DNA from: Candidatus Bathyarchaeia archaeon
GTDB taxonomy: Archaea > Thermoproteota > Bathyarchaeia > Bathyarchaeales > Bathycorpusculaceae
Length of the DNA: 64,000 nt
NCBI GenBank assembly: GCA_038883775.1
Contig: JAVZLM010000006.1
Location: 64,001-128,000 of the forward strand
Direction of reading: 5' to 3'
Shown here: in pieces, positions 42,476 to 53,168 of the stretch
Position numbering within the stretch: position 1 is the first letter of the stretch
How the letters are laid out: the number at the start of each line of letters is the position of its first letter
The notes under the pieces: generated by a model
The model's database searches: none
What the model was told of the DNA's origin: nothing
What the model saw: the letters and a program-made list of their open reading frames with translations, nothing else
Translations under genes and position numbers: made by a program

Positions 42476-43459
42476 TTAACCTTTTCGAGGCATCGCTAAA
42501 TCCGCTATGTCTACGCTGTGCTCATAGATCTGTCTTAACATTGAGGCTGCCGCTAGAATGTGAGGCATAATATCTAAAGGCTGTTCCTTGGCAACCTTTT
42601 CTAGGCTTGTAAATATTTTTTCAACCATTTCTCGCTCACCACGCACTTTCTCTGCCACGCCCACATCACCTGCCAGAAAAGCCTTCAAGGCATCTTCATG
42701 CGCTTGAAAACAAGCAAGGTGAAGGTCAACGAAGATTTTTTTAAAGTTTTCAGCTAAAGTTTTGCCCTTCAACTCGACTGTTTTCAATGCTATTCGAACA
42801 CATTCATCGCCTATTGCTTCCACCAAACTTGCTACGAGGCGATAGTCTAGGCATTCAATGGGACGCACACCAAGTTTTTCGCTTAAGCTTGGGTTTTGAA
42901 TTATGGTTCGAAGAATGCGCACTAAAAGGAAATAAAGCCTATTCACCTCATCATCGCGGGCTATAACCGCCTTTGCTAAGTGCATGTCTCCATCCACCAA
43001 CGCATTAACAACATCCCTATGCATACCAGCAGCAATTGTGTAGCCTCTTCGAAGAATTTTTTCAGGTGGAAAACCAGAAGGCTCTAGCAAACATTGTAAG
43101 ACTATACGAGAGTAATCTTCTTCCACAATTTCTAATCCAATAAGTCGACTAACGGCATTCTTAACTATGTCACGAACCTCAAAGCTAATACGCTCTTTTG
43201 TCTCAATAGTGATAATGTCAAATCCTAAGAGATACTTCGCTATGATTTCACGACTCAAATAGGGGCTAGGCCCCAAAGTAATGGTTCGCGGAGAAAGCTC
43301 AGCTCCATATTCAGGATCGATTAGAAGCTTGCCCTCGCTAGTTTCGCTGACCGCCACCACAGAGCCTGGTTTAAACCCGTGACGTTCAGCCCAGCGCTTA
43401 GGCAAACAAACGAAAAATGTGCCGCTTGGAGTACGTTGGACTTTACGCAATTCGCTCAT
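42476..43459 (-). CDS. Phosphate uptake regulator (AbrB-like N-domain plus two PhoU domains)
   Basis: RKVQ-T-SGTFFVCLPK-W, RDDEVNRLY, EAIGDE, EHSVDIAD. Confidence 0.9.
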   Translation of the reverse strand: MSELRKVQRTPSGTFFVCLPKRWAERHGFKPGSVVAVSETSEGKLLIDPEYGAELSPRTITLGPSPYLSREIIAKYLLGFDIITIETKERISFEVRDIVKNAVSRLIGLEIVEEDYSRIVLQCLLEPSGFPPEKILRRGYTIAAGMHRDVVNALVDGDMHLAKAVIARDDEVNRLYFLLVRILRTIIQNPSLSEKLGVRPIECLDYRLVASLVEAIGDECVRIALKTVELKGKTLAENFKKIFVDLHLACFQAHEDALKAFLAGDVGVAEKVRGEREMVEKIFTSLEKVAKEQPLDIMPHILAAASMLRQIYEHSVDIADLAMPRKG

Positions 43460-43541
43460 TTCAATCACTAACCGTAAATTTGCTTATCCCTATAATATAA
43501 ATGCATCTAAATAAAAAATTAAAATACAAACGTAAATGTGA

Positions 43542-44138
43542 GTGTTAGAATTGGAAAATTCAATTATAATAGGTATAGATTTGGCAGGAAGCTCCAAAAA
43601 TCCAACAGGATGGGCTTTATGGAAGAACAAAATAGTGAAAGCAAATTTGGTTTATACCGACGAGGAAATTCTTAAGGGCATTTTAAGCCATAGCCCATCC
43701 ATTGTTGCGATTGATGCTCCCTTAAGGCTGCCGAAAGAAGGAATTTTAAGAAAGGCAGATAAAGAAATGATAAAAAGGGGATACAGAGTCTTTCCGCCAG
43801 GTCTTCCAGCAATGGAAAAGCTAACATTGCGGGCTATAAAAATAAACAAGTTAATACTAGAAAAAAAGTATAAAACGGTAGAAGTACACCCAACATCAAC
43901 AAGAAAAGCTTTAAACATGCCTTTAAAAGAGTGGAAACCCATTCAAACAATCCTAGAGAGTATGGGAATAAAAGGAGACATTAAAACTCGCACCTTGACA
44001 TCTCATGAAATCGATGCCATAACAGCAGCCCTAACAGCCTATCTCCACCTACAAAAACAAACCGAAGCGATAGGAGATGAGGAAGAAGGCTTCATAATAG
44101 TTCCTAAAAAAATGGATTGGAGAACCCTAAAAATATGA
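43542..44138 (+). CDS. DUF429 family protein (RNase H-like fold)
   Basis: GIDLAG, AIDAPL, R-AD, EVHP, HEIDA. Confidence 0.85.
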   Translation: MLELENSIIIGIDLAGSSKNPTGWALWKNKIVKANLVYTDEEILKGILSHSPSIVAIDAPLRLPKEGILRKADKEMIKRGYRVFPPGLPAMEKLTLRAIKINKLILEKKYKTVEVHPTSTRKALNMPLKEWKPIQTILESMGIKGDIKTRTLTSHEIDAITAALTAYLHLQKQTEAIGDEEEGFIIVPKKMDWRTLKI

Positions 44139-45688
44139 GCCAAAATGAAAAGTTGCACAAAGCTGTAGAATTAACAATTGAGGCAGGATACCAACTTGAC
44201 AAAGAAGCCTTCGAATTTCTAAGCAGTTTGGCAACCACAGAAGATCCTACAGAAATCATAAGCAAAGCCCTACAAAAAATTGGAATGCTAACGGAAAAGC
44301 CGCTTTTTATTGGCAAAACGTTTCTAGAGCAATTGATAAAAGAACAGAAGCTAGTAGAAGAGGCATTTCCCCAACAAGTAGAACAAGTTCAAACATTACC
44401 AGAAACCTCCCCCCCTCTTGGAAGAGGAAAATTCCGCCCATTTGCAAAGGACATTGAAGCCCGCATTAAAATAATTGATAATCCAGCGGAAAAGTTAAGC
44501 TCAGGCGGAACGATGGAGGATTACCTACAATATTTCCAAGATAGGTTCAAGCGCATAGAAAAATTGTTAAGACAGCGAATGGATGTTAAAAGCGCAACTT
44601 CAATTATTGAAGCCCTAAAATCTCCTCCAAACACACGTTTAAAAGTAATTGGCATGGTCACAGAAAAAAGAGAGGCAAAACAAAAAATCTTGCTAACGGT
44701 AGAGGATTTGAATGCAAGTACCACAATGCTAGTGCCTCAAAACGCTTCAGCAGAAGTTTTGAAGAAAGCGCAATGTCTCCTCCTTGATCAGGTGGTTTGT
44801 TTTAGTGTTGTAAAAACAAGAAGCAACCTATTACTTGTCGAAGACATAATTTTACCAGACGTGGCGCAGAAAACGCCCCATAAAGCATCAATTCCAGTTT
44901 ACGCTGTGCTCACGTCGGATATGCATGTGGGCAGCACAAAATTTCAAGAGAAGGCTTTTGACCGCTTCCTTTCATGGCTTAAGGGCGAATATGGAAATGA
45001 AAAAATGAGAGAGATAGCAAGCCATGTCAAATATGTTTTGGTGGCAGGCGATATAGTAGACGGTATAGGCGTTTATCCAAACCAAGTTAAAGAACTGGCA
45101 ATAAAAAATATTGATGAGCAGTATAGGCTTGCTCGAGAATATTTAGAAAACATTCCAGATTATATAGAAGTGGTGATTATACCGGGAAATCATGATGCCC
45201 CCAGAAAAGCGCTGCCCCAACCACCTATATCCAACACTTTCTTTGAAACACTACAAGAAACCCGAAAATTTTATTCCCTTGGAAACCCCTGCACTCTAAG
45301 CCTCCATGACGTAGAAGTTCTGCTCTATCACGGTCGCAGCTTAGACGATGTCATCCCCACAGTTCCTGAAATGGATTCTAACCAGCCAGAAAAAGCAATG
45401 AAACTATTACTGCAGAGTCGCCACTTAGCGCCAGTCTATGGTGAAAAAACGCCAATTTCTCCTGAAAATAGAGACTGCCTCGTCATTGAGCGAATTCCAG
45501 ACATTTTCCATGCCGGACACATACATGCATTAGGTTATACAACCTATCGTGGAGTTTTAATTGTAAACTCAGGAGGGTGGCAAGAACAAACAGAGTATAT
45601 GAGAAGAATGGGTTTTGTTCCAACCCCTGGAAAAGTCCCGGTGATTAATCTTCAAACATTAGAAGTCAACATCCTCTCTTTCTCTTAA
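44135..45688 (+). CDS. polD1: DNA polymerase D small (exonuclease) subunit DP1
   Basis: SDMHVGS, AGDIVDGIGVYPNQ, PGNHD, LYHGRS, RHLAP, HAGHIH. Confidence 0.95.
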   Translation: MSQNEKLHKAVELTIEAGYQLDKEAFEFLSSLATTEDPTEIISKALQKIGMLTEKPLFIGKTFLEQLIKEQKLVEEAFPQQVEQVQTLPETSPPLGRGKFRPFAKDIEARIKIIDNPAEKLSSGGTMEDYLQYFQDRFKRIEKLLRQRMDVKSATSIIEALKSPPNTRLKVIGMVTEKREAKQKILLTVEDLNASTTMLVPQNASAEVLKKAQCLLLDQVVCFSVVKTRSNLLLVEDIILPDVAQKTPHKASIPVYAVLTSDMHVGSTKFQEKAFDRFLSWLKGEYGNEKMREIASHVKYVLVAGDIVDGIGVYPNQVKELAIKNIDEQYRLAREYLENIPDYIEVVIIPGNHDAPRKALPQPPISNTFFETLQETRKFYSLGNPCTLSLHDVEVLLYHGRSLDDVIPTVPEMDSNQPEKAMKLLLQSRHLAPVYGEKTPISPENRDCLVIERIPDIFHAGHIHALGYTTYRGVLIVNSGGWQEQTEYMRRMGFVPTPGKVPVINLQTLEVNILSFS

Positions 45689-46218
45689 GATAAACCACGT
45701 GCAATCAATCGCGCAGCCCGAAGGGGTTCTGGAATTCTGCCACAAAAGCACAAAAAGCGCACAAGGCTGGAGGCCCACCTAACATTTGCGCCTACCGTTT
45801 CCATATACAATGGAGCTTCGTCACTTTTGATGTGGATTTTATGAACTGGGCCAAGCCTTTGAAAAACTTTCCAACGGATTTCCCAATCTTCAAAGTGCCT
45901 TTTTAGGGCGCGCCTTACTGCTTTATTGTTTGGTTTTGTTTGCGCTATTATGATGATTGGTTTTTTGAATCTTTCATGAATTAGCATGGGGTTGATAAGG
46001 TTAAAGCCACCATAAGATACGCCCGCCAACAGAACGACATCAAATTCCCAATTTTCCAAGATTTTGGCAAGTTTTTCTGTTGCATCTAATCCATCAACCG
46101 TTATTTTTGTGACTTTCACATTTTTAATGGTGGCTTGCCTTAGCAAAACTATGGCAAGAAGTGCTTCACGAGTTATTCCTTTTTGGAAACTTCCGTCTTC
46201 AACCCCCACGATTAGCAT
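45685..46218 (-). CDS. DUF99 family protein (endonuclease V-like)
   Basis: GVEDGSF, VDGLDAT, GGFN, IPEPLRAARLIA. Confidence 0.88.
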   Translation of the reverse strand: MLIVGVEDGSFQKGITREALLAIVLLRQATIKNVKVTKITVDGLDATEKLAKILENWEFDVVLLAGVSYGGFNLINPMLIHERFKKPIIIIAQTKPNNKAVRRALKRHFEDWEIRWKVFQRLGPVHKIHIKSDEAPLYMETVGANVRWASSLVRFLCFCGRIPEPLRAARLIARGLS

Positions 46219-47443
46219 GTTTTGAAAGGCTTTTCGCCTCATATTCCACCAGACGCCCAAGTCTAGTGTCATTAGCAAAAACGTCTCTAATAAGAGTGCG
46301 AGCTATTTCCAGCCTAATTTTTTTCGTTCTTCCATACCTTCCCATACTTATAACCTTAGCATTCACAAGCCCCATAGAATCAAGCTCATTCACCAACGTG
46401 CTTAATCGGCGTTGCGTCAAAGGAGTGACGCTCACTTCTCCACAAAGCTCCGCATATACATCATATATCTCGCCTGTGATGGCACTATGAATGTTTGCCC
46501 TATTCAAATGGTACACGCTTAAAATCACAAGTTTTGAATGCAAAGTTAAGTTCCGCAGAGCCTCCACAACCCTATTATGTTCAATATGTTTTTCAGCTTC
46601 TCGAACATGCTCTTCAGTTACAAAACTCGCCCCTTTCCGTTCGGCAACTTCTCCAGCAACCCGTAACAAATCTAAGGCCCGTCTAGCATCACCATGTTCC
46701 GCAGCTGCCAAAGCAGCGCAAAGGCTTATAGCTGCTTCAGACAAGGCGCCTTCATAAAATGCTAATTTTGCCCGTTCAAGCAAGATATTGCCCAATTCAT
46801 TAGCATCATAAGGCCTAAAAACGATCTCCTCTTCGCTTAAAGAACTAAAAACTCTTGGGTCCAGAAACTCTTTCAAACGAAGGTCATTAGATATGCCTAC
46901 AATAGACGCTTTACTACTGCGTAAAGTTTCATTTATTCTTGTTAGCTCATAAAGGAGGCTGTCTCCGCGCACCTTCACCAAAGCATCAATTTCATCCAAA
47001 GCAACAATAAAAATAATTTTTAAAGTATCTAAACCAACTCTGAACCTATCAAAAACTTCGCCAACAGACAAACCAGTAAAAGGAACCTGCACGCCTATAC
47101 TTTGGCATAACCCAGAAAAAACGCGGTATTCAGAGCCAGCCATGCGGCAGTTTACGTAACAGAATTTGACAGGAGCGTTAAACTCCTTCGCTTTAGTTTC
47201 TAAATGACTTAAAACATATTTTGTTACAGCCGTTTTGCCTGTGCCAGTTTTTCCATATATAAAAACATTGGAGCTTCTGGATCCTTTTAAAACTGGGGCA
47301 ACGGTTTCTCCAAGCCTCGTAATTTGTTCTTCTCGATGAGGCAGTTTATCAGGTAAGTAATCATGCCGCAAGACCTCTCGGTTTCTGAAAATCCTATTGT
47401 TGGAAACAAATTTCTTGAACACTTCGTCGAGAATGCTATTCAA
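46199..47443 (-). CDS. cdc6: Orc1/Cdc6 replication initiator
   Basis: LPHRE, YGKTGTGKT, LDEID, GDARRALDLLR, C-terminal wHTH with GRYGRT. Confidence 0.97.
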   Translation of the reverse strand: MNSILDEVFKKFVSNNRIFRNREVLRHDYLPDKLPHREEQITRLGETVAPVLKGSRSSNVFIYGKTGTGKTAVTKYVLSHLETKAKEFNAPVKFCYVNCRMAGSEYRVFSGLCQSIGVQVPFTGLSVGEVFDRFRVGLDTLKIIFIVALDEIDALVKVRGDSLLYELTRINETLRSSKASIVGISNDLRLKEFLDPRVFSSLSEEEIVFRPYDANELGNILLERAKLAFYEGALSEAAISLCAALAAAEHGDARRALDLLRVAGEVAERKGASFVTEEHVREAEKHIEHNRVVEALRNLTLHSKLVILSVYHLNRANIHSAITGEIYDVYAELCGEVSVTPLTQRRLSTLVNELDSMGLVNAKVISMGRYGRTKKIRLEIARTLIRDVFANDTRLGRLVEYEAKSLSKHANRGG

Positions 47444-47590
47444 ATTGGTCCCTCAGTAAATTTTAGTGGTAAAACCACTCTTTCTGGTAGAAAAAATAAG
47501 CTCTGCCATACAGAAAACTAAATGTTCAACACAAAAATCCTAAAACAAAACTTTCGCACATTACTTCTCTTTATGATTAAGGAAAGGCAC

Positions 47591-47612
47591 ACCCCACAAT
47601 TTCTTCTGGAAC
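47591..47612 (-). promoter_or_regulatory. ORB element 1
   Basis: Reverse complement GTTCCAGAAGAAATTGTGGGGT fits the ORB consensus TTCCA-N-GGAAA...GGGG. Confidence 0.75.
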
Positions 47613-47775
47613 TCTGTAAGTTTTAATAATAATTCTTTTAGATTTTTGTTTATTTAGAAAGAAAGAAATATACTCTGAAAGGTTAAAAATCACAAAAGTT
47701 ACTATAATACTTGCTGTAAAAGTTTTTTGATAAATAACTAAAAAGGCAAACTAAAACACAAGTGAAAAGGAAAAA

Positions 47776-47797
47776 TTTCCAAAGGAAATGAAGGGGT
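47776..47797 (+). promoter_or_regulatory. ORB element 2
   Basis: TTTCCAAAGGAAATGAAGGGGT. Confidence 0.85.
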
Positions 47798-48019
47798 GCC
47801 ACTAAAATATAATTAAACATTATAGTATGCTATTATTATTTCATTTTATTTTTCTTCTTTATTTTTTCCTGCATATCTCCGTCTAAGAAAATTCTGTTGA
47901 ATATTTCACAGCAATTCACAAAATGTAAAGACCTTGTGAAATTAACTTAATAGCGCCTCTTTTAAACCTTCTTAATTCGGATTATTAACTTTTTCTTGTC
48001 TCTTTTTTGTGAATTAGTC

Positions 48020-48041
48020 ACCCCTCCGCTTCCAATGGAAA
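48020..48041 (-). promoter_or_regulatory. ORB element 3
   Basis: Reverse complement TTTCCATTGGAAGCGGAGGGGT; its G-string faces ORB2 across the DUE. Confidence 0.85.
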
Positions 48042-48239
48042 TAAACATTATTCAAGGCTTCTTTTTCTTTTTAAAATTTGGAGAAAATGTGAAGCCTGTA
48101 AACTCAAAAACATTAAGAAATTTCCTTCTTTTTCATTTTTCTCCATTTAATCCGCTTTCTTCTTTTTTCTTTTTTACCATAACAGCTATAACTTGTGAAG
48201 TGTAAAATTGTGAAACACCTACAATGGGTGCTTCCGCTA

Positions 48240-48671
48240 ATGCCAGCTAAAAAAATGCGCGTAGAACTCTACGATAGTGAGGGCAACAAGTATACCGTGT
48301 CCTTTGAAGGTCAGATAACTAGAGAAAAGGCTCTTCGCTTATTAGACATGGTGGAGCTTTTGGGCGGGGTATCAGCAAGCGAAGGAAATCCGGGAACACC
48401 GGTCCCTGTGACGCTCGATCAGCCAAATAAGTATAGCAAAGTTCGTATGATAATTCAGAAACATTTTCCACTGGTTTGGTTTTCTTCTAGGGATGTTCAG
48501 TTAGTTTATGAGCAGGAATTTAAGGAGCCTATAAGTCTTAGCACGGTTGCCACATACCTTTATAGAATGGCAAGCAAGGGATTACTTGCTAAAGCTGGGG
48601 CTTCTAACCGTTTGAAATACAGGCTGATGCCTACTTATCCACAAATATTGCCTAAACAACAGATGTCATGA
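48240..48671 (+). CDS. Origin-adjacent winged-helix protein
   Basis: Small N-terminal beta-beta-alpha domain, linker, then FSSRDV...ISLSTVATYLYRMASKGLL...KYRL wHTH; start reassigned to ATG 48240. Confidence 0.8.
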   Translation: MPAKKMRVELYDSEGNKYTVSFEGQITREKALRLLDMVELLGGVSASEGNPGTPVPVTLDQPNKYSKVRMIIQKHFPLVWFSSRDVQLVYEQEFKEPISLSTVATYLYRMASKGLLAKAGASNRLKYRLMPTYPQILPKQQMS

Positions 48672-48679
48672 TCCCTTTT

Positions 48680-49390
48680 TTATTGGGCTTCTGTTTCCTT
48701 CTTTTTTAGAATGTTTTCCATTTCTTTCTTCACATTATATTTGAATGGGATTTTGCTTGTATCCCTCTCCAGATAACCTCCTTCGTAAAGTTTCTTCATC
48801 AACCGCGCTGTGTGCTCTCGGCTGAGTTTGATTCGCTCTTTTATTTCTGGTGCGGTTTTAGGGCCTTCAGAAGCCAACATTTCCAGAACCGCCAATTCTG
48901 TTTCTGTGAGGGGGGCTAGGGCTTTTTCTCTTTTTATGGGTATTGCCGCCTCAATTTTTGCCTCGGGAACAATAGAAAGCCGCCGACTTTGCTCTTCAAC
49001 TTCCGAAACCTTTAAATTTAACTTTTCAAATGCCGCAGAAAGATCACTTACTTTTTCATCAACTTCAACAAATCTTTTTGAAATTTCCTCTTTGTGCTCC
49101 AGAACTTTACTTACCTTTTCCTCTAAAGACTGAACCCTCTTATGAGTTTCTTCTGCCTTGTTTAGTGCTCTTTCACTTTTTGTGGAAATGGCTTCAACTT
49201 TATAAATCACACGCTCCGTCCTTTCGGCTTCCTGCTTTAACTCTCTATTAAAACTCACCAAAATGTCGCCGATGATTTCTCTTGCCTTTTCATATTCTCT
49301 CCGCACCTTTTGCAACTGCCTGTAATACTCGACAGCAGCCCAGACGGTTATGACAAGCAAACTTCCAAAAAGAATCAAGAGCGCATCCAT
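48680..49390 (-). CDS. Membrane-anchored coiled-coil protein with C-terminal winged HTH
   Basis: N-terminal TM (residues 3-22), about 115-aa coiled coil, LTETELAVLEML...TAPEIK...SREHTARLMKKLYEGGYLER wHTH. Confidence 0.85.
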   Translation of the reverse strand: MDALLILFGSLLVITVWAAVEYYRQLQKVRREYEKAREIIGDILVSFNRELKQEAERTERVIYKVEAISTKSERALNKAEETHKRVQSLEEKVSKVLEHKEEISKRFVEVDEKVSDLSAAFEKLNLKVSEVEEQSRRLSIVPEAKIEAAIPIKREKALAPLTETELAVLEMLASEGPKTAPEIKERIKLSREHTARLMKKLYEGGYLERDTSKIPFKYNVKKEMENILKKKETEAQ

Positions 49391-49405
49391 ATAGAGTACC
49401 CCACT

Positions 49406-49680
49406 TGTGATTTATATGTGATTACGCCCAATTCAGACATGTTACATCACACATCACAGTTTTAACATAGAAGATTTAAAGATTACGGTAAAAAGGAAGC
49501 TGTGAAAGTTTCGATGACATCACACATCACAGCTAATAGAGACAAATGCTTGCAATCACAAAAATGCACTAAAAGGTCAGCTTTTTTGGTTTTTTGCTTT
49601 TTGCGCCTTAATTTGCACTTCAAATTAGCATAGCTGATTAAAGGTATTTCTCCTTTCTTGTATGTGACTTGTGATGTCAC
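49406..49680. repeat. TGTGAT / ACATCAC repeat array
   Basis: TGTGAT at 49406, 49417, 49670; ATCACA at 49446, 49453, 49519, 49526, 49555; TGTGAA 49501; TGTGAC 49663; exact 16-mer ACATCACACATCACAG at 49444 and 49517. Confidence 0.85.
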
Positions 49681-50156
49681 GTAAAGCCCTCGGTGGGATT
49701 TGAAAGCTTTTTTAGGCTTGTTTCAAGCTCTTCTCTAACCATTTTGATGAGTTTTAAATGTTCATCAAGTTCGCTGTCCTTGTTTGGTATATCCTTGTAT
49801 GCTTCCATGAACTCGTGTAATTTATTTGCTATTTCGAGATAGGGGTCAAGTGTCGTGTCTTCAAACACTCCCAAGTATCCTAAGAGCAATACTGTGTAAA
49901 TTGATTTTATGACGTTTTCTTTTGCCTGTTTTAAAGTTCTGTTGAAGGCTCCGCGGCTTATTTTTGCCTTTGATAGTCTTAATCTGGCTTTTTCGTCGTA
50001 TTTTAGTTGTTTTTCTGAAAAATTTTCAGCCAATATGTCAATAAGTAACGTTTCAAGCTGAATTTTTGTTAAATGACTATTTTTAGCGAGCATTTTCACA
50101 ATAGGGTCGTTTAATGCGTTTGTTAACCAGGCTTGGATGTTTTCTTTAAGCTTCAC
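49677..50156 (-). CDS. Hypothetical HTH-like protein
   Basis: SHLT-IQLE...ISRGAFNRTLKQAKEN resembles a sigma-region-4 / HTH_10-type recognition helix. Confidence 0.75.
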   Translation of the reverse strand: MKLKENIQAWLTNALNDPIVKMLAKNSHLTKIQLETLLIDILAENFSEKQLKYDEKARLRLSKAKISRGAFNRTLKQAKENVIKSIYTVLLLGYLGVFEDTTLDPYLEIANKLHEFMEAYKDIPNKDSELDEHLKLIKMVREELETSLKKLSNPTEGFT

Positions 50157-50285
50157 ACTTTTCTCTCCACAAACTTGCTGGATGGATACACTTTTGTATA
50201 CAGGACTATTTTAAATTATTGAGTGCTATGATGAAAAGCATGCTTTGCTAACACAAACATTTTATGTTAAAGAAAACAGTGTAAG

Positions 50286-51470
50286 ATGAGGGTCCCTTTG
50301 GATTCGGACTTTAAGCCCGCAGATCGCCTAAAAGGCATAAAATATTCTGGAATACGCCGCTTTTTCGATATAGCTCAAAAAACGCCGAATGTTATCAATT
50401 TAAGCGTCGGAGAACCCGATTTTGTGCCGCCGAAACATGCTTTGGAGGCTGGATGGCAAGCCATGAAAGAAGGTAAAACCCATTATACACCAACTAATGG
50501 CATTCCTGAACTTAGAGAGGCTTTAGCACAGAAAGCCTACCAAGACTATGGCCTCCACTACGATCCAAACGCTGAAATCCTTGTTACCGCCGGCGGGACT
50601 GAAGCTATTTTCTTAGCCATTGCTGGATTAGTGAATCCCGGCGATGAAGTGCTTATTCCAAATCCTGGATTTGTTTGTTATGAACCAAGTGTTCTTTTGG
50701 CAGGCGGTGTTCCTGTTTCTGTTCCTTTGCGGGAGGAAAATTCATTCAAACCTTCTGTTGAGGATGTGATATCGCGTATCACGAAAAAGTCACGTGTGAT
50801 GATACTTAACTATCCTAACAATCCCACAGGTGCCGTTCTTTCCCATGATGAGGCAGCTTCTTTAGCAAAAGTTGCTGTAGAACATGATGTGATTGTGATT
50901 TCAGATGAGGTTTATGAAAAAATAGTTTACGATGACGCTAAACACTGTTGTTTTGCGGCTTTCCCAGGAATGTGGGAGCGCACCCTAGTGATTAATTCTT
51001 TCTCTAAAACTTATGCCATGACTGGTTTGCGTGTTGGATGCATTTATGGACCCAAAGAGCTTATGTCTTTTCTTTGGCTTGTCCACCAGTATACGGTTGC
51101 CTGCGTAGATAGTCTTGCACAGCATATTGCCTTAGCAGCATTGAAAGGGCCACAAGATTTTGTTAAGAATATGGTGTGCGAGTTTGACAGGCGAAGGCAC
51201 TTGGTTCATAAAAGGCTTATGGAAATTGAGGGTTTTAATTGTAGCCTCCCAAAAGGCGCTTTCTATATGTTCCCAGACATAAAAGCTTTTGGCATGCGTT
51301 CAGAGGAGTTTGCTGAGTTCCTTGTGAGAGAGGCGGGAGTTGTGACCGTTCCAGGGTCTGCTTTCGGCGTTCAGGGTGAAGGTCACATAAGAATGTCTTA
51401 TGCTGCGACTTACGAAAAATTGGAAGAGGCATTAAACCGCATAGAAAGGGCTGTTAAAAAGATTAGGTAA
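50286..51470 (+). CDS. Class I/II PLP aminotransferase (aspartate aminotransferase-like)
   Basis: GEPDF, NYPNNPTG, SDEVYE, SFSKTYAMTGLRVG. Confidence 0.93.
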   Translation: MRVPLDSDFKPADRLKGIKYSGIRRFFDIAQKTPNVINLSVGEPDFVPPKHALEAGWQAMKEGKTHYTPTNGIPELREALAQKAYQDYGLHYDPNAEILVTAGGTEAIFLAIAGLVNPGDEVLIPNPGFVCYEPSVLLAGGVPVSVPLREENSFKPSVEDVISRITKKSRVMILNYPNNPTGAVLSHDEAASLAKVAVEHDVIVISDEVYEKIVYDDAKHCCFAAFPGMWERTLVINSFSKTYAMTGLRVGCIYGPKELMSFLWLVHQYTVACVDSLAQHIALAALKGPQDFVKNMVCEFDRRRHLVHKRLMEIEGFNCSLPKGAFYMFPDIKAFGMRSEEFAEFLVREAGVVTVPGSAFGVQGEGHIRMSYAATYEKLEEALNRIERAVKKIR

Positions 51471-51476
51471 GTTATT

Positions 51477-52310
51477 TTATAACTCCTCTGCACGCCTTTT
51501 AAGTTCGTCGAAGAGTTCTGGGCGCAAATCCCTTAATGTAGGAACGAAAGTTTCCACAGGCTTTATGTCCGCATAATCCACATCACACATCACAAGGTCC
51601 TCTTCGTCATATTTTGCTTGAGCTAAAACTTTTCCATTAGGCCCCACAAGTCGACTTCCTCCCCAAAACTGTAAACCGTCTTCTATGCCTACAAGGTTAA
51701 CATAAGCCAAAAAAGCCGTGTTTTCTATAGCCCTTGCTATGGTTAATGTCTCAAAAAATTTTTTTCTAATTGCTGGGGATGCAGAAATGCAAACTATTAA
51801 TTGTGCCCCTTTAAGCCGTGTTAGGCGGCTTACTTCTGGGAAAAATATGTCATAACATATGATTAAGCCTATTTTTCCAATTTTTGTTTCAAAAACTGCT
51901 GTGCTATATCCTGCGCGGAAATATCTTTTTTCTTCAAAAACGCTGTGAGTTGGGAGATATATTTTTCGGTATTTTCCTATGAAGCCTTCTGGGCCTATGA
52001 GAACTGCTGTGTTATAAAGGGTTGCTTTAGTTTTTTCGCTTAATTCTGGCATGCCAAAAATAATATGAGCATTTGTTTTTCTGGCTATGTTCTCTAAAGC
52101 TTTGACTGAAGGGCCTGGTATTGTTTCTGCTAACTCATATAGTTCGTCTCTGACCGTATAGCCTGTCAGTGAAAGTTCTGGAAAAATTACGAGATTTGCG
52201 TCTTGTTTCTTGGCTTTATTTACAAATTTTTCCATTTTCTTTATGTTTGCCTTTTTGTCTCCACGTTTGCAACTGATTTGCGCCAATGCTATCTTAATTT
52301 TATTTTCCAT
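51477..52310 (-). CDS. Carbon-nitrogen hydrolase (nitrilase family), probable glutaminase partner of NadE
   Basis: FPELSLTGY (Glu), YRKIYLP (Lys), ICYD (Cys) catalytic triad. Confidence 0.9.
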   Translation of the reverse strand: MENKIKIALAQISCKRGDKKANIKKMEKFVNKAKKQDANLVIFPELSLTGYTVRDELYELAETIPGPSVKALENIARKTNAHIIFGMPELSEKTKATLYNTAVLIGPEGFIGKYRKIYLPTHSVFEEKRYFRAGYSTAVFETKIGKIGLIICYDIFFPEVSRLTRLKGAQLIVCISASPAIRKKFFETLTIARAIENTAFLAYVNLVGIEDGLQFWGGSRLVGPNGKVLAQAKYDEEDLVMCDVDYADIKPVETFVPTLRDLRPELFDELKRRAEEL

Positions 52311-52328
52311 TTTTATTACGCCCCATTA

Positions 52329-53168
52329 TCAGTAACTTCGGGGAAGTCTGAAATCCGCTCCCACAGTGCGATACTCAAGCTTAGTTGTTAATAACATTCT
52401 CCTTTTATGTTCCGTGGAAAGCCACCGATTTTTTATTCTATCCACAAGATTCTTTTCTACACCCAATTGTTGGGCTATGTCTTTTGTTTCCATAAAATGT
52501 TCAAGTCCGTAAAGGATAAGGTCTAAAAGGTCATATTTTATGCCAAGTTCCGTTTCTGCCAGCTGTCCAGGCCATAGGGCGGGGGATGGTGGTTTTGTCA
52601 AGATTTCTTTTGGAATCCCTATGTGTTGTGCGAGTTTTCGAACTTGTGTTTTGTATAAGTCCATTATTGGCGATATGTCGGCGGCCACGTCGCCCCATTT
52701 TGTGAAGTAACCCATCATGGTTTCTGATTTGTCTGAGCTTCCGCAAACGAGCATATTGTGCCTATTGGCGAAGTAATAAAGGTAAATCATTCGGGTTCTC
52801 GCCTTTATATTGCCCTTACACACTTTATCGTTTGGGTCAAAATTTGGTATTGACTTATATAGTGTTTCCAAAGTGGGGGTAATATCTATCATTTTTGTTT
52901 TGAACCCAAACTTTTCAGCCACAAGTTTCGCGTGTTCAACATCCTTTTTGCTGTAGGTTTCCTTTTCTGGTAATATGAGCCCTAAAACTTTTTCGCCGCC
53001 AATGGCTAGAGTAGAAAGAGCAGCTACTGTGGAGCTGTCTAGACCTCCAGATAATCCTAAAACTACGCCCTTCACTTTGGATTTTTCCACATAATCTCTT
53101 ATGAAACGCCTTATTTTCATCTCTACTTCTTGAAAGTCCAAATCTAGAACTGAAGGTTTTAATTCCAA
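52329..53168 (-). CDS. nadE: NAD+ synthetase
   Basis: GLSGGLDS, GNIKAR-RM, GYFTKWGD, KPPSPALW-GQ-E, HKR. Confidence 0.95.
   Translation of the reverse strand: MELKPSVLDLDFQEVEMKIRRFIRDYVEKSKVKGVVLGLSGGLDSSTVAALSTLAIGGEKVLGLILPEKETYSKKDVEHAKLVAEKFGFKTKMIDITPTLETLYKSIPNFDPNDKVCKGNIKARTRMIYLYYFANRHNMLVCGSSDKSETMMGYFTKWGDVAADISPIMDLYKTQVRKLAQHIGIPKEILTKPPSPALWPGQLAETELGIKYDLLDLILYGLEHFMETKDIAQQLGVEKNLVDRIKNRWLSTEHKRRMLLTTKLEYRTVGADFRLPRSY

Follow-up and report, generated by a model that had tools for sequence, protein, structure and literature searches.

RacA, RocS and RicO are described as origin-to-membrane anchors of bacteria (Firmicutes) that combine a helix-turn-helix (HTH) with a coiled coil; RocS and RicO carry a membrane helix, RacA is linked to DivIVA, domains of the RicO family are often annotated as MerR or MarR, and for RicO itself nine sites over about 700 kb are reported (bioRxiv 10.64898/2026.03.06.710092). 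The present analysis concerns three genes beside a replication origin (oriC) in a 64,000-nucleotide stretch of a Bathyarchaeia genome (C6:64001-128000, hereafter the window; genome 1.69 Mb, 91% complete). They encode a soluble winged HTH (wHTH) protein (P1), a protein predicted to join a transmembrane (TM) helix, a long coiled coil and a wHTH (P2), and an HTH-like protein (P3). We propose, with a probability of roughly 45%, that P2 tethers origin-side DNA to the membrane and regulates its own gene, the candidate sites being arrays of the hexamer TGTGAY (RTCACR) around P3.

For most archaea the means of chromosome positioning and segregation is still open, as SegAB and SMC-like proteins cover only some lineages. 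A tether between archaeal DNA and the membrane is not known to us, and a literature search likewise found none; nor was a description of the module treated here found in the literature (supplements not covered). Beside the oriC of two large, ecologically important classes the module occurs in single copy and is strongly conserved, and its members are annotated merely as "MarR family," "winged helix" or "hypothetical."

A gene module beside the replication origin

The initiator gene orc1/cdc6 (orc1-1 type; 46199-47443, - strand; NF001625, E 6.8e-153, with Cdc6_C and Cdc6_lid domains) is separated from P1 by an AT-rich gap of 796 bp (47444-48239; GC 0.25-0.30). This gap contains three boxes resembling origin recognition boxes (ORB), of the form CACCCC-N5-TTTCnnnnTGGAA, at 47590-47611 (+), 47777-47798 (-) and 48019-48040 (+). 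ORB2 and ORB3 are inverted around an AT-rich stretch of ~220 bp (about 47799-48018) with a GC content of about 0.25, and the same ORB pattern is found in 39 of the 43 orc1-P1 intergenic regions, that of the window counted. An archaeal oriC has been defined as an AT-rich region adjacent to orc1/cdc6 with flanking ORB repeats (PMC4010727); judged by its sequence, the gap is an oriC in this sense. A previous reading of the window from its letters alone, here called the sequence-only reading, had placed three DNA-binding-type genes directly to the right of oriC, and the open reading frames of P1 (48240-48671, +), P2 (48680-49390, -) and P3 (49677-50156, -) were confirmed there together with orc1 and the ORB boxes.

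Conservation was followed in a class sample of 151 evenly chosen Bathyarchaeia genomes, in which a match at E<=1e-120 was taken as a close orc1 ortholog, and in a phylum sample of 301 genomes. P2 is single-copy in 99 of the 151 genomes, a few split matches aside, and a close orc1 ortholog is present in 103. Both genes occur in 71 genomes, in 61 of these on one contig; here they lie within 5 kb of each other in 60 cases, with a median gap of 1240 bp, and on the same strand in 59. Sixty loci chosen for having P2 and orc1 on the same contig were mapped, their genes being placed by tblastn, and most show the order PhoU-DUF429-PolD-(EndoDU)-orc1-oriC-P1-P2-P3-(aminotransferase)-CN-hydrolase-NadE. 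A P2-centred set comprised the 80 closest loci, chosen with neighbours ignored, and the 59 of these with full 6-kb flanks all possess P1, P2, P3 and orc1 (59/59). At the level of the phylum, the P2 profile matches 162 of 301 genomes, again in single copy, and the P3 profile 135. Two Nitrosopumilus-type loci (f32) have the order PolD-orc1-P1-P2-P3; in one of them the P2 homolog shares 96% identity with ABX13693.1 of Nitrosopumilus maritimus, named "winged helix DNA-binding protein," and the P3 and P1 homologs are each a "hypothetical protein" in Nitrosopumilus species. Synteny with the origin, which had been put forward as a check of the sequence-only reading, was thus borne out in Bathyarchaeia and in the Nitrosopumilus-type trio beside orc1. 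On this comparison of sequences, orc1-oriC-P1-P2-P3 is an old, conserved origin-side module that has remained unannotated.

P2 and the TGTGAY arrays

P2 consists of 236 amino acid residues, with a predicted TM helix at residues 3-21 (~49328-49384), a probable coiled coil at ~25-150 (~48941-49318) and a C-terminal MarR/TrmB-type wHTH at 161-220 (~48731-48910), all on the - strand. The wHTH scores 31.0 bits against MarR (PF01047; cut-off 24.6; residues 161-212) and 27.7 bits against TrmB (cut-off 25.6), and its best NCBIfam matches, Lrs14 and Sta1, are both far under their cut-offs. The N-terminal hydrophobic 19-mer is present in 66 of 75 orthologs, preceded by ~3 residues with a net charge of -1 and followed by 20 residues that include five Lys/Arg; a second TM helix is absent from the orthologs. 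Under the positive-inside rule the positively charged flank of a TM helix lies on the cytoplasmic side, and this charge pattern predicts an N-out/C-in anchor with the wHTH in the cytoplasm, that is, facing the inside of the cell as the proposal of a tether had presupposed. Residues 25-150 are heptad-rich with a single Pro/Gly, and the stalk of ~125 residues is probably a coiled coil. The architecture first read from the letters, namely TM helix, long coiled coil and wHTH, is hence upheld by the 19-mer, the heptads and two Pfam families above cut-off.

Five residues of the recognition helix (R191, E192, H193, R196 and K199) are invariant in the 75 orthologs, and the stalk is variable. Complex prediction for a P2 homodimer, run with two copies and the ortholog alignment, gave 0.17 against a mark of 0.42 and counts neither way. 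Database relatives number 4533 at E<=0.001, the best 120 of which are 227-257 residues long; names among the relatives listed are "MarR family," "helix-turn-helix" or, for coiled-coil hits, "chromosome segregation ATPase." No longer or fused forms were found at E<=1e-8, which is weak evidence.

Array 1 (49403-49681) comprises ten RTCACR/YGTGAY hexamers (49406, 49417, 49446, 49453, 49519, 49526, 49555, 49663, 49670 and 49676) against a background of 0.86 per kb over the 1.69-Mb genome. It spans from the P3 stop codon to directly upstream of the P2 start, with pairs on either side of a TATA-like TTTAAA at about 49473. This is the densest 300-bp cluster of the genome, which agrees with the dense repeat array that had been noted between P2 and P3; the only other cluster with at least five hexamers is array 2 (six), 1.1 kb away. 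Array 2 (50765-50899; hexamers at 50765, 50778, 50789, 50795, 50888 and 50894) lies within an aminotransferase ORF (50286-51470, +). The CN-hydrolase gene (51477-52310, -) has array 3 (51582-51594), the tandem pair ATCACAcATCACA, in its 3' part, and a similar cluster at the 3'-end of this gene occurs in L014, L016 and L018. Together the three arrays hold about 18 hexamers over 2.2 kb around P3, arranged as tandem (7-bp), inverted and everted pairs. The pairs TGTGATGTGTGAT and TGTGATATCACA are candidate targets of a P2 wHTH dimer, and some lineages have half-sites that combine into a perfect palindrome, either TGTGATATCACA or TGTGACGTCACA.

The P3-P2 gap is long (about 180-450 bp) and motif-bearing in 50 relatives, and across 50 loci hexamer density is 35.4 per kb in this gap versus 1.4 in oriC and 1.95 in the flanks. 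A common layout is kept: a pair over the P3 stop, a mid-gap tandem pair with 7-bp spacing, the TATA-like TTTAAA, a tandem pair ~10 nt past it, and a pair spaced by 10-11 bp before the P2 start. Rfam gave zero matches at E<=1 across 47000-52500, so that the length of the gap is not explained by a known non-coding RNA.

The sites follow P2. At least two hexamers lie at -18 to +45 of the P3 stop in 162 of 173 loci with P2, versus none in any of the 12 loci without P2 (12/12; loci with a complete P3 3' end). Families f8, f17, f20 and f21, which lack P2, have the locus orc1-oriC-P1-P3 with at most three hexamers per any 250 bp, and in five genomes of P2-less families, 94-100% complete, the P2 profile gave no match covering the wHTH. 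The P3-stop sites persist where hypF stands between P3 and P2 (f18), where P2 is 2.4 kb off (L201) and where P2 and P3 are divergent (L094); being kept despite insertion, distance and divergence, they are more than P2 promoter DNA. P1 is present in 0 of 27 f18 genomes, yet the TGTGAY sites are kept there, which rules out P1 as the array binder. Judged by these patterns, P2 is the probable binder of the TGTGAY arrays.

In 138 loci a second cluster is found 0.5-1.5 kb beyond P3, at 5.6-6.4 hexamers per kb and with 429 close pairs. Where the aminotransferase ORF is present, this cluster occupies a fixed spot inside it; otherwise it lies in the non-coding DNA that separates P3 from the CN-hydrolase gene. 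The 48 aminotransferase genes contain 315 hexamers versus 91.6 expected from synonymous-codon shuffles, and in 33 of the 48 the observed count was unreached in all 200 shuffles. Array sites in coding DNA exceed what the protein sequence needs, which fits a structural, centromere-like role. Within the genome itself, 10 of the 22 close hexamer pairs fall in 49406-51582; the 12 outside the locus are near the chance expectation, nine of them in coding DNA.

The P3 stop codon TGA is itself inside a TGTGAY site (49677-49681), as in most loci with P2, including those of other classes; a protein bound here could influence termination or read-through into P2.

P1, P3 and the surroundings of the locus

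P1 (143 residues) starts with the ATG at 48240, where the ortholog alignment has the consensus MPxRKxRVE. An AlphaFold model (pLDDT 70.4) places a beta-beta-alpha unit at 1-42 and a wHTH at 61-130, joined by a disordered linker (43-60). The sequence matches Penicillinase_R (BlaI/MecI) at E 0.017 (15.9 bits, under the Pfam cut-off of 22.6), and a profile built from 51 orthologs matches the CopY-type regulator 2k4b at E 0.0093. Foldseek against PDB returned generic wHTH matches only, 1okr and 1p6r among the top ones, and the model supports a generic wHTH fold for the C-terminal part. P1 is tied to the initiator gene: an orc1 ortholog occurs in 90 of 90 genomes bearing P1, and P1 in 0 of 48 genomes without the ortholog. 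Of 82 pairs on the same contig, 75 are divergent, and the median gap is 754 bp.

The motif that accompanies P1 is TGTGAA. Seven copies (47905-, 47915-, 47935+, 48008+, 48088+, 48194+ and 48209+) occupy the P1-side half of oriC (47905-48214), giving seven in 310 bp versus 54 in the 64 kb of the window. The last two copies stand directly downstream of a conserved TATA-like ACAGCTATAAC in the P1 promoter, within the conserved block TTCACCATA-ACAGCTATAAC-TTGTGAAGTGTAAAgT-TGTGAA. In the 43 orc1-P1 regions 211 copies were observed versus 23.2 (sd 4.5) expected from dinucleotide shuffles, nearly all within 350 nt of P1 and mainly in one orientation. TGTGAY is not enriched there (16 observed versus 14.7 expected). 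In 131 origins with P1 alongside, TGTGAA reaches 6.57 per kb, versus 0.24 in eight without it, at similar GC. The Nitrosopumilus-type origins (L111:4081-4523 and L112:7831-8304) have 10-11 copies of TGTTAA in the orc1-P1 gap, five of them as GTTAAC, and 0.26-0.93 per kb elsewhere in the two loci; here the repeat motif is different from the TGTGAA of Bathyarchaeia and the layout is kept. P1 would bind the TGTGAA repeats, which fill the side of oriC next to it and reach into the P1 promoter, and would act as an accessory origin-binding protein and autoregulator. The sequence-only reading had cast P1 as a partner or regulator; it is not a partner at the array and tracks TGTGAA within oriC instead.

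P3 (159 residues) matched nothing in Pfam or NCBIfam. Among the 25 most frequent of the 68 Pfam families that 74 orthologs matched at E<=1, none suggested a function (GIT_SHD, the commonest, was found for 13 of 74) and the Sigma70_r4 and Tfx models were absent. The P3 profile found no match among PDB entries, 8hno included, and Foldseek against PDB gave nothing at E<=0.001. By sequence P3 is a new family. In the AlphaFold model (pLDDT 82.7), residues ~26-90 fold into an HTH of four helices that resembles sigma region 4, LuxR or Tfx, and residues 97-159 into a C-terminal helical hairpin. Fold matches of the HTH (7vim, Z 6.2; 8hno_A, 6.0; 4ldz, 5.8; 3vep and 3hug, 5.7) have Z scores that are common for helical models, and the best domain-level groups are LuxR/GerE, sigma region 4 and the archaeal Tfx-family repressor EnfR. 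In the ESM Atlas, P3 falls in "hypothetical protein" clusters, and a Hadarchaeota cluster, 14% of whose members have Sigma70_r4, is a weak lead (0.78). The wHTH and HTH assignments originally made for P1 and P3 thus find agreement, for P1 in a weak match and the model, for P3 in the model only.

A palindrome, GGATACA-N4-TGTATAC (element B; 50184-50203), lies ~30-45 nt upstream of the P3 start and is proposed as the P3 operator. Its core is ATACA-N4-6-TGTAT, with the consensus GTATACA-AAAn-TGTATCC, and 53 of 76 loci match a loose form of it. Element B is kept in f18, which has no P1, in loci without P2, and in other classes; the strict form occurs three times in the genome, the other two copies being in coding DNA. 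P3 would bind this palindrome in its own promoter. It had likewise been taken for a partner or regulator, and it tracks its own palindrome. From these correlations, each of P1, P2 and P3 appears to have its own DNA element.

Several loci depart from the common order. Family f18 (L062-L081) has a close orc1 ortholog in 1 of 27 genomes (G054) and no P1, and hypF stands between P3 and P2 in most, including L076; in its P2-PolD gap a small cupin-like protein appears by eye, and an origin in this gap was ruled out by the absence of ORB and of an AT-rich stretch. In L003:6431-8966 two genes stand between P1 and P2, one NurA-like (PF09376, E 1.4e-6), the other for a HerA-like ATPase (DUF87, E 1.4e-7); such a pair is inserted there in several families of the same order. 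A P1-P2 gap of the same size is present in relatives of the same family or order (L005-L007, L010, L012-L016 and L018-L020) but absent from the window, and it is this insertion that gives orc1-P2 gaps of the "about 3.8 kb" class. Loci from other classes of the phylum have a gene between P3 and P2 whose product looks, by eye, like an XRE-type HTH with CBS domains (L095:6432-7273, L104:6367-7008 and L107:6422-7040), probably also between P2 and P3 in L094 and L113; some lineages may thereby have a fourth module member of their own. Where P2 is missing (L105:5544-6351, L106:5522-6317 and L194-L205), P1 and P3 converge with abutting or overlapping 3' ends, so that the pair stays together beside oriC even without P2.

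In-frame stops were seen in three orc1 matches (G090:C1:113478-114704, TAA; G098:C41:168150-169376, TAA; G064:C2:350209-351399, TAG), and the P2 matches in G242 and G221 have one in-frame TGA each; these could be sequencing error, pseudogenes or recoding. In the window orc1 is preceded by genes that a Pfam scan assigned to the PolD small subunit, to endonuclease dU and to proteins with DUF429 and with a PhoU domain. Called as the longest ORF, the endonuclease dU gene (45685-46278), which is downstream on the strand of orc1, has an 80-bp overlap with the orc1 3' end, and its true start is probably later. A 65-residue ORF at 49483-49680 (-), with a best E of 0.2, is unconserved even in loci with 88% P2 identity and is regarded as spurious on that account. 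A sigma-70 promoter scan, which is inapplicable to archaea, gave matches no better than shuffles. When RNA runs were compared with 47400-51700, none was listed as containing this region and two had a small word share (0.08).

A proposed origin tether, rival explanations and known systems

The proposed mechanism takes P2 as a single-pass membrane protein with ~3 residues outside, a stalk of ~125 residues and a cytoplasmic wHTH head, which would bind TGTGAY hexamers in three clusters around P3. With P2 fixed in the membrane, binding to the arrays would hold DNA 1.3 kb from oriC at the membrane, presumably within a few tens of nanometres of it. The varied arrangement of half-sites would suit DNA-binding heads that are flexibly linked to the tip of the stalk. 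In archaea the usual spacing between TATA box and transcription start places the start within the sites downstream of the TATA-like box; sites that bracket this box and cover the expected start mean that bound P2 would repress P2. Dimerization of P2, its insertion in the membrane and a role in origin positioning, segregation or the control of initiation are what we infer from this arrangement. A wider and more speculative picture, which we hold to be unlikely as a whole, is that of an origin organizer without a motor, conserved from Bathyarchaeia to Nitrosopumilus, in which P1, on short iterated motifs in one half of oriC, modulates initiation, P2 clamps a nearby multi-cluster "centromere" to the membrane and P3 sets the level.

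The tether, as the sequence-only reading had drawn it, gains from synteny, from the predicted topology and from an array that tracks P2. A number of findings weigh against it. No orc1 ortholog is present in 28 of the 99 P2-bearing Bathyarchaeia genomes. The f18 locus is P3-hypF-P2-PolD, without ORB or AT-rich gap, and in G123, a single-contig genome of this family, P2 lies about 290 kb from the sole Orc1 homolog. In f40 and f45, P3 and P2 form an overlapping operon and orc1 is absent within 6 kb. Several Bathyarchaeia families without P2 keep orc1, oriC, P1 and P3; the loss of P2 while the origin is kept means that P2 is dispensable for origin function. NadE, CN-hydrolase and PhoU are kept in the same block, so that synteny alone is not specific to replication. 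A centromere-like role for the repeats, also claimed earlier, agrees with their tracking of P2 and their extension into coding DNA; array 1, however, is also the P2 promoter region, so that autoregulation accounts for part of it, and, lying upstream of P2, it is lost along with the gene, which makes the link between P2 and array partly trivial. All motif and co-occurrence counts come from related genomes, which are not independent events, and so overstate independence. Finally, the module contains no motor NTPase gene within the window. Matches to SMC_N and AAA_31 (ParA/MinD-type) in the genome are all on other contigs, none for AAA_31 on that of the window, and no ParA was found among the genes scanned at 42476-51470 (SegB having no model in the libraries). 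The earlier statement that ParA and Smc are missing from the window therefore holds for SMC_N and AAA_31, with the addition that the lineage carries such genes on other contigs, and the arrangement of ParABS or SegAB, a ParA/SegA Walker ATPase gene adjoining a DNA-binding gene, is not present.

The same loci can be read differently, with P2 as a membrane-bound, autoregulated transcription factor, perhaps released by proteolysis or of purely local effect, the arrays as its operators and the adjacency to the origin as inherited gene order. Distant clusters would then be auxiliary operators, looping to repress P3 and P2. The way in which array 1 brackets the TATA-like box and the region directly upstream of the P2 start argues for this, as do arrays 1 and 2 on either side of P3, which suit looping repression; auxiliary operators in coding DNA are known, lacO2 for example. 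P2 and P3 lie far from any orc1 in f18 and have none nearby in f40 and f45, and metabolic neighbours are kept in the block. However, P2 has neither an extracellular nor a ligand-binding domain, the lack of longer fused forms being weak evidence to the same effect, and array 2 aside there is no further site cluster in the genome, so that such a factor would find little to regulate other than P3 and itself. With about 18 hexamers in three clusters, some of them held in an ORF against synonymous drift, the sites exceed the need of most operators. Moreover, a P2 that binds DNA from within the membrane would tether it by physical necessity. We consider a plain regulator doubtful, and the f18, f40 and f45 loci, the losses of P2, the metabolic neighbours and the missing motor gene keep it a strong rival.

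That another protein (P3, P1 or an unlinked factor) binds TGTGAY, leaving the P2 wHTH to bind elsewhere or non-specifically, seems improbable. Sequence by itself allows no direct assignment of the binder, P3 is encoded beside every array with its stop inside a site, and the P1 motif TGTGAA has the TGTGA core in common with TGTGAY. Against this, lineages without P2 keep P3 and P1 and have the array in 0 of 12 loci, f18 keeps the sites without P1, TGTGAY shows no enrichment in oriC, and the palindrome of P3 persists without P2 or P1. Very improbable, to our mind, is an anti-sigma-like P2 whose coiled coil holds the P3 hairpin at the membrane as a signalling switch, with the arrays secondary. It draws on the resemblance of the P3 HTH to sigma region 4 as solved with membrane anti-sigma factors (3vep, 3hug and 4cxf; Z 5.6-5.7) and on P3 and P2 being adjacent and co-oriented in most loci, with the overlapping operon of f40 and f45. 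The Z scores, though, are in a range common for helical models, P3 persists without P2 in several families, and an invariant P2 wHTH would be left unexplained.

Should the wider picture of an origin organizer be true, the clamping by P2 would position or segregate newly replicated origins, and archaea would have their first described tether between chromosome and membrane as well as their first conserved accessory protein that binds the origin. Homologs in the cultured Nitrosopumilus maritimus (ABX13693.1) open the hypothesis to direct testing. Each of the three motif-protein pairings is a concrete probe, and the arrays offer an unusual case of candidate binding sites kept inside a metabolic gene.

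Among known systems, BlaI, MecI and CopY provide the best sequence and fold matches of the C-terminal wHTH of P1 (2k4b, 1okr and 1p6r). P1 differs from them in scoring under the Pfam cut-off, in its distinct N-terminal beta-beta-alpha domain and in being tied to an archaeal origin. EnfR is described as a dimer on a promoter pseudo-palindrome (PMC10570040). Residues 26-88 of the P3 model superpose on EnfR 4-55 (PDB 8hno) with an rmsd of 1.4 A over 52 residues and 31% identity, whereas in P3 a helical hairpin replaces the alpha+beta "note-head" domain and the palindrome has a different sequence.

Canonical MarR-type members are soluble proteins of 100-150 residues in which the terminal helices form a dimer interface around the wHTH. 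The P2 wHTH resembles MarR, TrmB and Lrs14 in passing the Pfam cut-offs for MarR and TrmB, but P2, at 236 residues, has a TM helix and a stalk of ~125 residues, its wHTH is at the extreme C-terminus and a ligand-pocket region is lacking; it is not a canonical MarR family regulator. In the ParR/parC system of plasmid R1, short iterated sites in two blocks flank the promoter of the operon for the binding protein, and the centromere is at the same time the autoregulatory operator. By analogy, the candidate sites of the P2 array overlap the promoter of the P2 gene. Unlike ParR/parC, the module has no ParM or ParA motor gene, the DNA-binding domain is a wHTH and not a ribbon-helix-helix, P2 is predicted to be membrane-anchored, and the locus is chromosomal.

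The closest likeness in architecture is to RacA, RocS and RicO, with which P2 has in common a small HTH, a coiled coil, a membrane element and sites clustered on the origin side, bound specifically by the three proteins and candidates in the case of P2. In these proteins an N-terminal MerR-like HTH precedes the coiled coil, and an amphipathic helix may follow at the C-terminus, whereas the order in P2 is reversed, with an integral TM helix and neither amphipathic helix nor DivIVA partner. Its candidate sites, about 18 hexamers, form one 2.2-kb locus, unlike those of RicO. P2 is archaeal with a wHTH of the MarR/TrmB type, MerR is absent among the best 25 of the 31 Pfam families that it matched, and no sequence relation to the three was detected. 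With its mirror-image order and integral TM helix, P2 is best regarded, on its predicted architecture, as an analogue of RacA, RocS and RicO and not as a member of their group.

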